Position numbers and translations under genes: made by a program. Source: Bdellovibrionota bacterium (GTDB lineage: Bacteria > Bdellovibrionota > UBA1018 > CAUJDS01). From it: a stretch of DNA of 32,000 nucleotides. Location of the stretch: NCBI GenBank assembly GCA_963169695.1, contig CAUJDS010000062.1:10792-42791 (forward strand), given 5' to 3'. The notes under the pieces are model-generated. The model saw nothing but the letters and a program-made list of their open reading frames with translations. It was not told the origin of the DNA and made no database searches. Shown here piece after piece: positions 16,935 to 19,802 of the stretch (the stretch's first letter is position 1; the number at the start of each line of letters is the position of its first letter).

Positions 16935-19802
16935 TCACGGTTTCTTCTTCAAAACCTTAGCCAAACACCTCCGGAAAAACCCGGGTCCTTCCGGTGGAAG
17001 GTAGCGTCTCTTAATAGGCTTGCCCCAATCGTCCAATTGAAAGGCAACCGCTCGCCTAAATTTCCAGGAGCGCAATAAGTCTCTGGTTTCGACCGGAAGA
17101 TCATTCTTCTGCTTCAGAACATCCGCAAGCTGCACAAGTTGGCTGGCTTCCATTCCCCACCGCTCTTTGTACCAACGGTTCTTAGTTTCGGACCATTCCC
17201 TGCGCGCTTCTAGCATTTTCTCCATTTTCGCTTTCAAAACACTGTGAAGGTTTGCCCAGACATCTTCAGGCAAGGTTGGGCGAGCGGTAACGAATTTCAT
17301 TGCGCCACTTTGAACGTCAGTACCGCGATTGTTCAATAAACTGTTGACGACTTTCCAAACGTTGACGGGAGGTTCTGGCATGTTTTTCTTGCTGCTTAAC
17401 TCCTCTAAAACCAACGCTTGAAAGCGGGCCTTACCTCCCACGACATGGACGCTGAAAACACCCCCTTCATCCGCTAGCTGCTGAAAGACCTGCCTCCAAT
17501 ATCCGGGATGGTGACTTGCTTGGGGAATATCCGCCAGTTGAACACGATCTCCCGTTGCCCCCAGAAAATCCCAATAGGCATCATCCCATCGAGCAACGTC
17601 CGATGCATTTGCGCCCTGGACCCGAGGATTGTCTCGAATGCCAATGTCGGGAAGAATATCGGCCAATTTTCCCAAGTTGTTTTGATTTCGGTAGAAAACC
17701 TGCTCAACCGCGATCCAGGTTGATGGCTTCCAGTTCTTTTTTTTCCTCAGCAGGTGCGCCAAAGCAAAAGATTGTACTCTCCTATCAGGATGCGCCAAGA
17801 GACTCTCCAGTTGTAATAGAGTTTCGTCGCCCCACTTGCCCAGGACACCCTTCACTCTTTGCAAGTAGACGGCGTGCTCGCGTTCACGACTTCTATACGT
17901 TTCCGCACCTTCATCCCAAAGTGACAAGCGATCGCCAGGCCCAAAGTCGAGTGCATGTTTCGTCCAAGCTTCCAAAGTAGCGGTAAGAATGAGTTGTTCG
18001 GGAAGGGTCTCCGCCTTTGCGACAAACTCCGGAAGATCCCGTATGAAACCTGCCGATGCGGGAAGGGCACGTTCAGTGACTTGTCGATAGCTCTTGAGAG
18101 TAGGAACTTCCTTTATCAAAGACTCTAAGGAGGAATCTCTTAAGGCTGCCTCCAATGCTTGGATCGCAAACTCGGCATGACTGGAATGATTTAAAGCCTC
18201 GGACAAGAAATTCATTCGCCTCGCCGAGGCACCTCCGCCAAAAATGGCACGAATCGTGGACGGTTTTCTCATGTAACTGCCGAGAAAAGCGTCCGTTACA
18301 TCCACGGTCTGAGTTTTTTCTAGGAGAACACGAAACCGCTCGATATCTTGCGGATCCGTTTCGGGATTGAGAAGGGAAGCCAATGCGCGCGCCACCGACG
18401 CGTGCTCTTCCTTCGACAGAGTTGGATCTTCCAATTGTCGTTCAAAGGTGAAAAACAACGTGTCTAACGTTAAAGGCAGAACTGCACGAATCTGAGCCCT
18501 ATCTTTAAGAACCAGACGACCGTCATAGTTCTTAGCGGCCGACGGCTCCACTTCCAGCGCGATCGCTACATCACCAAAGGATAGTTGATCCGCACCTTTC
18601 GCGCAGTAAAGGCCCGGCCCTAAAACGGCCGTTGAAGATTTACCTTGAATGAACATTGTTCCATTTGAAATCCAAAGTGCCCCATTCGCCATCGACTGAG
18701 CCGCGGCAAGGGAGGTTCGATGAAGAAACACCTCGGCTGCTGCTCCACTTGCAATGGCCTTACCCTCAGGAAGCGGATCAAAAATGCGGTACTTGGCAAC
18801 TCCCGCTTCTTTCGCCAACGTCGTCACTCCATACTCATCTAGGAGTCTGCGAGTGTGAAGAGAACCTCCTGAATAAAGCTGCGCCTTCTCCAGCGCCTCG
18901 ACAATTTTGCCGGAAGCGGTGGTGGCCTTTGCACCATAATACTGAAGTTCCTCATGCCCCGTTTTCAAAAAGGCCAAGGCTTCCTTCAAATGATTTTGCC
19001 GAATGTCTTGCAGAAGCGAGCGAATAGCCGACTGCGAAGTTGCAGACAAATGCATATCCGGATACTCCGAACCGTAGCGCAACCACCGCAATACTTGCTT
19101 GAGTTTGGCGAAAACCGCGTTCTGATTCTTAAATTCCGGATTAAGACGAAAATCCAGTTCTCTTTTCTGAAACTGCTTCACGCCCCACTCGGCGAGGTTC
19201 ATCGGCTTACCGTCCACCTGGGCTTGAAGCTCGGACAAAAACACAAATCCTTGAGGCCCAATAGGAATATTAGAAATCGCTTCAAAGTGCTCAAGCTGTG
19301 GACGAAACCTGGGATCTTTTAAAAAATCTGCCGCAATCTGGATGTCCAAATTTTTAAAGAAAATATTTCCCGGTAGCTCCTTTTGAATACCAGCGATGAC
19401 TTTTGAGTAATCTGGCTTGGACTTAACATTTGATTGGGCATCCTTCGCGATCAACATCAGATCCAAGTCACTTTGAATTCGATGCCAATCAAAGAGATGC
19501 AAGCGAGGTCGGCTCTCTACCCATTGTCGATACGCGTCGACCCCTCCCAATTCGTGCATCTTCTTGCGCATGAAGACCAGGATTTCCCGAGACGTCCCTC
19601 CATAGGTGACAAGGTCTGCGCCGTGTTGTTGAGCCAGAATCCGTGCTGCCCGAATTTCAAGCACAAGGTCTGTGGTCTTACCCGCGAGCTCTCCAAGCTC
19701 CTGGACATTCAGCGAATCAAAGTCGCGCCCAAACGTCCAAGGCGACGCCATCAGCGCTGTAACCAATCCGAGAATGAACACACCCCTACCCCTCAAGTAC
19801 AC
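16935..19802 (-). CDS. Large exported protein, 955 aa, candidate NTase-like + ADP-ribosyltransferase-like multidomain protein
   Basis: Intact ORF; hydrophobic N-terminus GVFILGLVTALMASPWTFG. Residues about 61-157 carry YGGTSRE...SDLDLML...NLDIQIA. Residues about 358-440 carry VFLHRTS...GPGLYCAKGADQLSFGDVAIALEVE. HEAT-like segment around ESLLAHPDRRVQSFALAHLL. Confidence 0.9.
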   Translation of the reverse strand: MYLRGRGVFILGLVTALMASPWTFGRDFDSLNVQELGELAGKTTDLVLEIRAARILAQQHGADLVTYGGTSREILVFMRKKMHELGGVDAYRQWVESRPRLHLFDWHRIQSDLDLMLIAKDAQSNVKSKPDYSKVIAGIQKELPGNIFFKNLDIQIAADFLKDPRFRPQLEHFEAISNIPIGPQGFVFLSELQAQVDGKPMNLAEWGVKQFQKRELDFRLNPEFKNQNAVFAKLKQVLRWLRYGSEYPDMHLSATSQSAIRSLLQDIRQNHLKEALAFLKTGHEELQYYGAKATTASGKIVEALEKAQLYSGGSLHTRRLLDEYGVTTLAKEAGVAKYRIFDPLPEGKAIASGAAAEVFLHRTSLAAAQSMANGALWISNGTMFIQGKSSTAVLGPGLYCAKGADQLSFGDVAIALEVEPSAAKNYDGRLVLKDRAQIRAVLPLTLDTLFFTFERQLEDPTLSKEEHASVARALASLLNPETDPQDIERFRVLLEKTQTVDVTDAFLGSYMRKPSTIRAIFGGGASARRMNFLSEALNHSSHAEFAIQALEAALRDSSLESLIKEVPTLKSYRQVTERALPASAGFIRDLPEFVAKAETLPEQLILTATLEAWTKHALDFGPGDRLSLWDEGAETYRSREREHAVYLQRVKGVLGKWGDETLLQLESLLAHPDRRVQSFALAHLLRKKKNWKPSTWIAVEQVFYRNQNNLGKLADILPDIGIRDNPRVQGANASDVARWDDAYWDFLGATGDRVQLADIPQASHHPGYWRQVFQQLADEGGVFSVHVVGGKARFQALVLEELSSKKNMPEPPVNVWKVVNSLLNNRGTDVQSGAMKFVTARPTLPEDVWANLHSVLKAKMEKMLEARREWSETKNRWYKERWGMEASQLVQLADVLKQKNDLPVETRDLLRSWKFRRAVAFQLDDWGKPIKRRYLPPEGPGFFRRCLAKVLKKKP

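Follow-up and report, generated by a model that had tools for sequence, protein, structure and literature searches.

This study concerns a 955-amino-acid (aa) protein encoded in a Bdellovibrionota bacterium (assembly GCA_963169695.1), a member of a phylum known for predatory bacteria. Its open reading frame (ORF) lies on the minus strand at positions 16935 to 19802 of the window, by which we mean the whole 32,000-nucleotide stretch of DNA that was analyzed (contig CAUJDS010000062.1, forward-strand positions 10,792 to 42,791). The new element is a family without annotation in which, according to structure models, a nucleotidyltransferase (NTase) resembling the CCA-adding enzymes and a minimal H-Y-D-type ADP-ribosyltransferase (ART) are fused in one rigid, exported module; both folds are already well known.

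The ORF was intact, with a GTG start, 955 codons, and a stop, as determined from the ORF listing and by direct reading, and its Shine-Dalgarno sequence was strong (Table 1). Because its GC content (0.503) matches that of the window (0.495), nothing marks it as foreign. An earlier reading made from the DNA letters without database searches (the sequence-only reading) had reported an intact frame of this length, and the start, stop, and Shine-Dalgarno confirm it. The motif peptides quoted there were all located at the residues and nucleotides claimed for them: YGGTSREI at residues 67–74, SDLDLMLIA at 111–119, NLDIQIA at 151–157, FLHRTS at 359–364, and GPGLYCA at 395–401. Residues 61–157 correspond to nucleotides 19622–19332, and residues 358–440 to nucleotides 18731–18483. 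Downstream of the ORF and convergent with it is the gene for a RelE/YafQ-like toxin with a helix-turn-helix (HTH) antitoxin; upstream and divergent is the gene for a lipoprotein with a tetratricopeptide repeat (TPR). An SLT transglycosylase gene and housekeeping genes lie further out.

Table 1. Features of the 955-aa ORF and of its product, with positions in the window
Feature	Position	Strand	Evidence
Complete ORF, 955 aa plus stop	16935–19802; stop codon 16935–16937	−	homologs found
Shine-Dalgarno GAAGGAG, 1 nt 5' of the GTG start codon	19804–19810	−	direct sequence reading
Signal peptide of the Sec type (residues 1 to ~25), with R4/R6 in the basic n-region and V8–A19 as hydrophobic core; cleavage site ambiguous	19728–19802	−	read from sequence
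Predicted pol β-type NTase head, residues 36–225, with an N-terminal helical hairpin in front	19128–19697	−	AlphaFold2 pLDDT ~85–93; Foldseek matches to class II CCA-adding enzymes, probability 1.0
G68-G69-T70, NTase G[GS] motif, end of strand 1	19593–19601	−	invariant or nearly so
D112-L113-D114, predicted metal-binding DxD of the NTase, strand 2	19461–19469	−	no variation in the core family; missing only from divergent paralogs
D153, third NTase carboxylate, strand 3	19344–19346	−	D or E in the core family
Basic helical module ("neck"), residues 226–340	18783–19127	−	AlphaFold2 helices; within the ~310–350-column alignments to CCA enzymes and to PARP helical domain plus ART
LRWLRY (residues 238–243) with invariant R239 and R242	19074–19091	−	R204/R207 of alignment A4 invariant
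Predicted minimal PARP-like ART domain, residues 350–445	18468–18755	−	domain model pLDDT 88; ART-fold matches in three Foldseek searches; motif alignments to exotoxin A and PARP1
H361-R362-T363, ART motif I H-x-[ST], strand 1	18714–18722	−	H invariant in 24 sequences; aligns with exotoxin A H440
Y399 in GxGxY, ART motif II, strand 2	18606–18608	−	kept in at least 90% of sequences; aligns with PARP1 Y896
F409, second aromatic residue, 10 residues after Y399	18576–18578	−	Y or F at position 409 in most; aligns with PARP1 Y907
D427, candidate third residue of the H-Y-D triad, turn before the fifth strand	18522–18524	−	at least 90% of sequences; GxDF in distant relatives; DSSP on model
Variable C-terminal half, residues 446–955, probably helical	16938–18467	−	poorly conserved; no Pfam match

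Relatives of the protein and conservation of the motif residues

The 955-aa protein had no match in Pfam, NCBIfam, or the sequences of the Protein Data Bank (PDB), even at permissive thresholds. The PADLOC and PHROG models had no match for it or for six relatives, and on that ground we rejected a known anti-phage defense system or phage family. A word-indexed search of 5.8 billion proteins identified seven relatives besides the query, with 34–39% identity over the N-terminal half; none of the seven contained a Pfam domain. Owing to the word index, a second search of the same database, performed with a profile, gave just four proteins. With HMMER, a profile searched against 1.84 billion cluster representatives gave 82 proteins at E ≤ 1e-3, including 29 at E ≤ 1e-30, and the size of the family was set at no fewer than 80 clusters at 50% identity. 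Scanning 185,579 species genomes revealed three loci, two in genomes labeled "MAG: bacterium" and one in a genome labeled "MAG: Oligoflexia bacterium" (MAG, metagenome-assembled genome), and one more member was labeled Bdellovibrionales. The named members are Bdellovibrionales or Oligoflexia MAGs, an apparent concentration in Bdellovibrionota. The release factor 3 encoded in the window agrees with its Bdellovibrionota origin, having 65–71% identity to proteins named Bdellovibrionales, Bdellovibrionota, Oligoflexia, or Bacteriovoracia.

Conservation among the eight closest sequences was restricted to residues ~40–480, and their C-terminal halves were essentially unalignable. Residues G68, G69, T70, D112, D114, D153, H361, and Y399 were invariant in these eight sequences. 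Across the ~30 clusters of the core family these residues, together with G374, S379, and D427 of the ART, were essentially invariant. When larger sets of 19–43 sequences were compared, G68 was invariant and G69 was present in at least 90%. The DxD was lost in the divergent paralogs P0020, P0022, P0028, P0031, and P0034, and the ART histidine in P0020, P0024, P0036, and P0043; P0020 thus lacks both. The paralogs without the DxD or the histidine keep the overall architecture. Their losses suggest that the two activities can be lost independently and, as far as sequences tell, follow the usual pattern of active enzymes with occasional degenerate copies. Judged by this conservation, the putative catalytic residues of the NTase and ART are under strong purifying selection.

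Approximately 40 distant clusters (800–1400 aa) contained (V/L)(A/S)H(E/D)T, with VAHET among its forms, as well as GxG(F/L)Y(T/A) and GxDF at the matching columns, and several of them also kept GGT and (Q/S)D(L/I)D(I/L). These proteins matched the profile collinearly in two stretches, one covering the NTase head and the other the helical module plus the ART, and nearly all of them start with a signal peptide. Because the distant clusters are collinear with the query, we conclude that signal peptide, predicted NTase, helical module, and predicted ART form a conserved unit of a sizeable superfamily without any annotation. The layout shared by at least 80 clusters is signal peptide, NTase, basic helical module, ART, and a variable C-terminal half. 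Pfam scans of 19 distant relatives provided no bridge to a known family.

The sequence-only reading had named variability of the motif residues among homologs, or predicted structures without the two folds, as findings that would count against it, and it had suggested a homolog search and structure prediction followed by Foldseek. All of these were carried out. The motif residues (G68-G69-T70, D112, D114, D153, H361, and Y399) were conserved, not variable, and both the pol β and the ART fold were predicted, as described below.

Several individual relatives are of note. P0048 had a weak Pfam match to AbiEii (E 0.05). Two giant relatives, P0025 (2917 aa) and P0026 (4249 aa; module at residues 464–961), carry the NTase-ART module near the N-terminus, and the thousands of residues that follow it contained no Pfam domain in either protein. 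An HExxH-like string, AHEVMHF, was spotted by eye in P0025.

A predicted nucleotidyltransferase in the N-terminal module

An AlphaFold2 model of residues 36–500, made with an alignment of eight sequences, had a pLDDT of 86.2 and a pTM of 0.85; with such a pTM, the packing of the domains against one another is itself a confident prediction. When this model was compared with the PDB by Foldseek, residues ~36–340 fell with tRNA nucleotidyltransferases and CCA-adding enzymes of class II (4wby, 6qy6, 7oqx, 1miv, 1vfg, and 4x4w) over 300–350 columns, with E values of 1e-4 to 4e-2 and probabilities of 0.94–1.0. For 4wby, 6qy6, 1miv, and 1vfg the E values were 1e-4 to 7e-3 and the probability ~1.0. 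FAM46C was also matched (E 4e-3). The motif residues occupied the expected kinds of structure: G68 was at a strand-helix junction before helix 2, and D112, D114, and D153 were all on predicted strands. The GG and DxD motifs were separated by 41 residues, and the model placed two extra helices there. In the pol β superfamily the usual spacing from G[GS] to DxD is ~9–13 residues; the insertion is therefore atypical but does not disqualify the protein from membership.

Sequence comparisons did not place the module in a known NTase family. Neither PolyA_pol (PF01743) nor any other NTase family of Pfam matched the query or 19 members at E values up to 10. An hhalign comparison of the NTase profile with Escherichia coli Cca was not significant; only the GG motif was aligned, with a probability of 0.6. 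By inspection, the EDxxR template of CCA enzymes is replaced, and Q236 is invariant in the eight closest sequences. Because Pfam gave no match, neither motif B (RRD) nor the EDxxR of motif D was kept, and the alignment to Cca was not significant, we rejected membership in the CCA/PAP family. The helical module that follows the head had a median pI of 9.1; the median for the head itself was 5.5, and that for the ART was 5.9. From the model and the conserved motifs we consider it very probable that the N-terminal module has an NTase fold, and we view it as a divergent pol β NTase resembling a class II head and neck. The pol β-type NTase proposed in the sequence-only reading is thus borne out by the Foldseek matches, which returned a CCA-enzyme-like fold for the segment, and by the conservation of its motif residues.

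A predicted miniature PARP-like domain

The model of residues 36–500 also matched dozens of PARP1 and PARP2 catalytic fragments in the PDB (best E 6.7e-3, probability 0.63), as well as PARP16. Residues 338–462 were then modeled alone with 24 family sequences, giving a pLDDT of 88.2 and a pTM of 0.79. Almost all of the top ~45 PDB matches of this model were ART-fold proteins, among them PARP12, 16, 4, 1, 2, 10, 14, and 15, Tpt1, the Rhs toxin TreTu, Tre1, and diphtheria toxin; their scores were modest (E 0.17–3, TM 0.35–0.47). Higher scores were obtained with a library of predicted viral structures, in which phage and giant-virus PARP-like proteins had probabilities of 0.9–1.0 and TM-scores of 0.44–0.56. 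A phage "PARP catalytic domain-containing protein" of 127 aa was matched with a probability of 1.00 (E 2.4e-3, TM 0.49/0.48), and giant-virus PARPs reached TM-scores of 0.56 at probabilities of 0.99–1.0. Two further small phage proteins, a mycobacteriophage ADP-ribosyltransferase of 114 aa and a PARP-domain protein of 107 aa, had probabilities of 0.98 and 0.90. The phage PARP-like proteins of 107–127 aa demonstrate that ARTs of this miniature size exist, and the domain described here resembles them.

Motif alignments were made with hhalign against exotoxin A, PARP1, and Arr-2, the reference sequences of which were checked against the PDB. The family histidine fell on H440 of exotoxin A in YHGTFLEAAQSIVFGG (pairwise E 7.7e-4). 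The family pattern GxGlYaa...slsY fell on GKGIYFADMVSKSANY of PARP1, so that Y399 corresponds to Y896 and position 409 to Y907. None of the Pfam ART models (PARP PF00644, ART-PolyVal PF18760, and Tox-ART-HYD1/2) matched above its gathering threshold; below it, ART-PolyVal was found in three of the 24 members (best E 0.036) and PARP in one (E 0.022). PDB profile searches with alignments A2 and A3 gave noise and one sub-threshold exotoxin-A-type toxin, which was matched at its His motif.

Canonically the catalytic Glu begins strand 5, but in the family this position may be E, D, Q, G, or S. In the domain model D427 is in a turn two residues before that strand, and the order of motifs in the family is HRT, SN, Y, and D. 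Taken together, the models and motif alignments make a PARP-like ART fold for the second module likely. The sequence-only reading had predicted an ART of the H-Y-x type. Three Foldseek searches with PARP-type ART matches agree with it as to the fold, and H361 and Y399 are as it proposed; as a refinement, D427 is the candidate third residue, so that the putative enzyme would be better described as H-Y-D than as H-Y-x, with H361-Y399-D427 as the triad.

N-terminal signal and variable C-terminal half

In the N-terminus of the protein, MYLRGRGVFILGLVTALMASPWTFG, a basic n-region precedes a hydrophobic core, and such a core was found in nearly all full-length family members. The signal-like N-terminus noted in the sequence-only reading was therefore seen in the relatives as well. 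We propose from these features that the protein is Sec-exported, and its export would presumably go beyond the inner membrane.

For the remainder of the protein, the sequence-only reading had suggested helical or HEAT repeats. Residues 446–500 were helical in the model of residues 36–500, and no HEAT or ARM family of Pfam matched the 955-aa protein. A helical segment after the ART, with the consensus L.PE.HP.D...F...L..A...G....FL..YL.RPG.L, was present in one copy at query residues ~460–530 and approximately four times in tandem at residues ~470–900 of P0010 (1330 aa); it may be a family-specific repeat unit.

Genomic context of the homologs

The homologous loci had wholly different neighbors. 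One followed flagellar export genes and fliA, and another was beside a secretin and a cellulase gene. A tblastn comparison of eight window neighbors with six homolog loci (L001–L006) gave no match. Because the contexts differ and these comparisons were negative, we conclude that the loci share no conserved partner, immunity gene, or dedicated secretion system. A promoter and terminator scan found fewer sites than in shuffled sequences and was uninformative.

Comparison with known enzymes and toxins

Over the head and neck the best structural matches were the class II CCA-adding tRNA nucleotidyltransferases and poly(A) polymerase I (PF01743), together with FAM46/TENT5. Like the CCA enzymes, the family has GG..R[DE], followed on the next strand by a DxD, as well as a third carboxylate; the LRWxRY helix resembles, in our own reading, the LRAxRF helix that follows motif D in those enzymes. 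It differs from them in being exported and fused to an ART, in having the 41-residue, two-helix insertion, and in lacking body and tail domains.

The second module shares the ART fold, H-x-[ST], GxGxY, and the second aromatic residue with the H-Y-[EDQ] ARTs and the minimal phage PARP-domain proteins (A0A6J5KSB8, 127 aa). H-Y-[DE] ART toxin families are known, among them Tox-ART-HYD1 and HYD2 (PMC3482391), and their acidic third residue is Asp, as is the candidate third residue of the family described here. Compared with PARP-like and HYD ARTs, however, the family domain is short (~95 residues), and its Asp is in the turn before strand 5 and not at the canonical Glu position. Compared with the HYD toxins, it is internal and not a C-terminal toxin tip, and it has no immunity gene. 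Arr (2hw2, 9iba) is also a minimal ART, with a catalytic H-Y-D triad (H19/Y49/D84) and an S-N loop motif between the His and Tyr (PMC6092378), and the order HRT, SN, Y, D in the family is the same. Unlike the family, Arr is cytoplasmic and stand-alone and has a small-molecule substrate. A specific relationship to Arr was rejected, because the hhalign comparison with Arr-2 aligned only six columns, the HxT hexapeptide, with a probability of 0.3.

Diphtheria toxin, exotoxin A, and cholix combine a signal peptide and an ART with additional delivery domains. These Sec-exported H-Y-E toxins differ in having a catalytic Glu, known receptor-binding and translocation domains, and no NTase, and the family had no significant overall similarity to any of the three. 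Other secreted or toxic proteins that use nucleotide cofactors include the Legionella SidE proteins, which combine a mono-ADP-ribosyltransferase (mART) with a phosphodiesterase (PDE), the AMPylase DrrA/SidM, and the tRNA nucleotidyltransferase toxins MenT/AbiEii. SidE is similar in concept, having two coupled nucleotide-processing domains; no homology of the family to SidE, DrrA/SidM, or MenT/AbiEii was detectable, and to our knowledge none of them joins a CCA-like NTase with a PARP-like ART. The layout of polymorphic toxins was not found either, since it is the conserved N-terminal part that holds the predicted catalytic modules, the variable C-terminus has no enzyme motifs, and there is no conserved neighbor. 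New divergent ART families are found regularly, 26 of them in Legionella alone (bioRxiv 10.1101/2024.07.30.605764).

Proposed function and alternatives

With moderate confidence, we favor the combined reading that the protein is an exported NTase-ART two-enzyme effector that acts within another cell. Residues ~36–445 would constitute a rigid two-enzyme module made up of an NTase with an intact predicted metal-binding triad (D112, D114, and D153) and G68-G69-T70, the basic helical module, and the miniature PARP-like ART. The Sec-exported protein would enter a prey or competitor cell, and macromolecules inside that target would be nucleotidylated and ADP-ribosylated with NTP and NAD+. NTP with Mg2+ and NAD+ are cytoplasmic cofactors, absent outside cells. 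Action inside another cell is proposed because both putative enzymes need these cofactors and the protein appears to be exported; taken by itself, this effector role is a serious but tentative possibility. Diphtheria toxin and exotoxin A, which are Sec-exported ART toxins, likewise work within other cells. From these features we infer that both domains are catalytic, which substrates they would modify, and in what organism. The variable C-terminal half might serve in targeting or delivery, a role suggested because it evolves fast, because P0010 contains tandem helical repeats, and because relatives reach 2917 and 4249 aa. As a substrate, RNA or tRNA would be our first guess, because the head and neck are CCA-enzyme-like and the helical module is basic, and proteins our second. 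There are precedents in H-Y-E-clade ARTs that act on nucleic acids (Tpt1 and DarT) and in an NTase toxin that acts on tRNA (MenT).

Several other explanations were considered. The protein might be an exported periplasmic or extracellular enzyme that is no toxin and modifies small molecules or the producer's own envelope, for example a two-headed detoxifier that unites activities like those of the aminoglycoside/lincosamide nucleotidyltransferases and Arr, or a scavenger or remodeller of material from lysed cells. The H-Y-D triad and S-N loop in Arr order (PMC6092378) and the minimal, Arr-like size fit such an enzyme, as do a phage "rifampin ADP-ribosyl transferase" at rank 46 of the viral fold list, the lack of an immunity gene or secretion-system context at the loci compared, and the position of the gene amid housekeeping genes at the GC content of the window. 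On the other hand, the similarity to Arr-2 in the profile alignment is confined to the one hexapeptide, the PDB entry of Arr (2hw2) was not among the top 50 fold matches, and known ANT and Arr enzymes are cytoplasmic and without signal peptides. NTP and NAD+, moreover, are not available in the periplasm or medium, and the C-terminal halves, being long and variable, together with the giant relatives, rather suggest modules for delivery or targeting. We therefore regard a non-toxin enzyme as unlikely. The effector reading gains plausibility from the universal signal peptides, the need for cytoplasmic cofactors, the fast-evolving C-terminal halves, and the giant multidomain relatives.

Inactive PARP-like domains are common in the PARP family, and only the NTase may be enzymatic, with the ART-like domain being a degenerate module that binds NAD+, a nucleotide, or a substrate, or else a regulatory sensor; the variable canonical Glu position, the much reduced domain, and the modest fold scores all agree with this. 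However, H361, Y399, and D427 are kept across the superfamily, very distant members included, as a working H-Y-D site would be, and Arr proves that an H-Y-D triad can be catalytic (PMC6092378). In addition, P0022, P0028, and P0034 have lost the NTase DxD yet retain the ART His and Tyr, a pattern that speaks for a separate function of the ART. A non-catalytic ART is still less likely than a non-toxin enzyme. Much further down the scale, and very improbable, is the explanation that the resemblances are coincidental or are AlphaFold artefacts of shallow alignments and that neither fold is present. The alignments did contain only eight and 24 sequences, there was no significance at the sequence level, and TM-scores did not exceed 0.56. 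Against this, both models were confident, both sets of fold matches were family-pure, and the motif alignments fell exactly on catalytic residues that are strictly conserved. Because the motifs are conserved in the eight closest sequences and in the core of ~30 clusters, and those of the ART in ~40 distant clusters as well, they are more than chance resemblances.

A more specific form of the two-enzyme effector, suggested by analogy with SidE, is one in which the two active sites are mechanistically coupled in the rigid module and build a hybrid modification of a kind so far undescribed. The NTase might extend or cap an ADP-ribose mark with a nucleotide, or the two enzymes might make a concerted attack on both ends, or loops, of tRNA. 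We consider such coupling improbable; if true, it would be a prey-killing chemistry specific to Bdellovibrionota.

If the prediction of an exported two-enzyme effector holds, the family would be an unannotated superfamily (at least 80 clusters) with a new architecture among nucleotide-using effectors, and minimal PARP-like ARTs of ~100 residues, so far mostly of phage, would also be present inside large bacterial secreted proteins. Experiments could then start from a defined catalytic unit of ~465 residues with five obvious point mutants, and a target or chemistry not yet known might be found by which bacteria can be killed.

Other genes in the window

The neighboring toxin-antitoxin pair is of type II, with the toxin gene first (16350–16634, plus strand; 94-aa YafQ/RelE/ParE-like product) and the antitoxin gene overlapping it by 23 nt (16612–16902, plus strand; 96-aa HTH_3 product, Xre-type); both are convergent with the 955-aa ORF. 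The divergent gene at 20102–21622 (plus strand) encodes a lipoprotein-like protein that carries a single TPR at its N-terminus, weakly similar to BamD/YfiO and CpoB, and ends in a tail rich in Gly and Pro (GGVGGVRGGIEPPTGVRGGGGVGAVNPNTPPPGPP). Two minus-strand genes, at 15358–16224 (288 aa) and 21640–22692 (350 aa), encode proteins with signal-like hydrophobic N-termini and no Pfam or NCBIfam match; both may be additional exported or outer-membrane proteins specific to the lineage.

A PolX-type DNA polymerase gene was found at 26932–28599 (minus strand), with HHH_8, HHH_5, thumb, and PHP domains; the palm was absent from the Pfam listing. By its domain content this is a bona fide pol β-family enzyme elsewhere in the window. 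The gene at 25153–26328 (plus strand) encodes an AAA_14 plus DUF4143 ATPase amid housekeeping genes; ATPases of this type are often on mobile or defense-associated loci. The ORF of release factor 3 (RF3; prfC) at 8623–10524 (plus strand) was listed with a TTG start and 633 aa, which makes it ~70–100 codons longer than its homologs (535–565 aa, 83–89% coverage), and the true RF3 start is probably downstream of the listed TTG.

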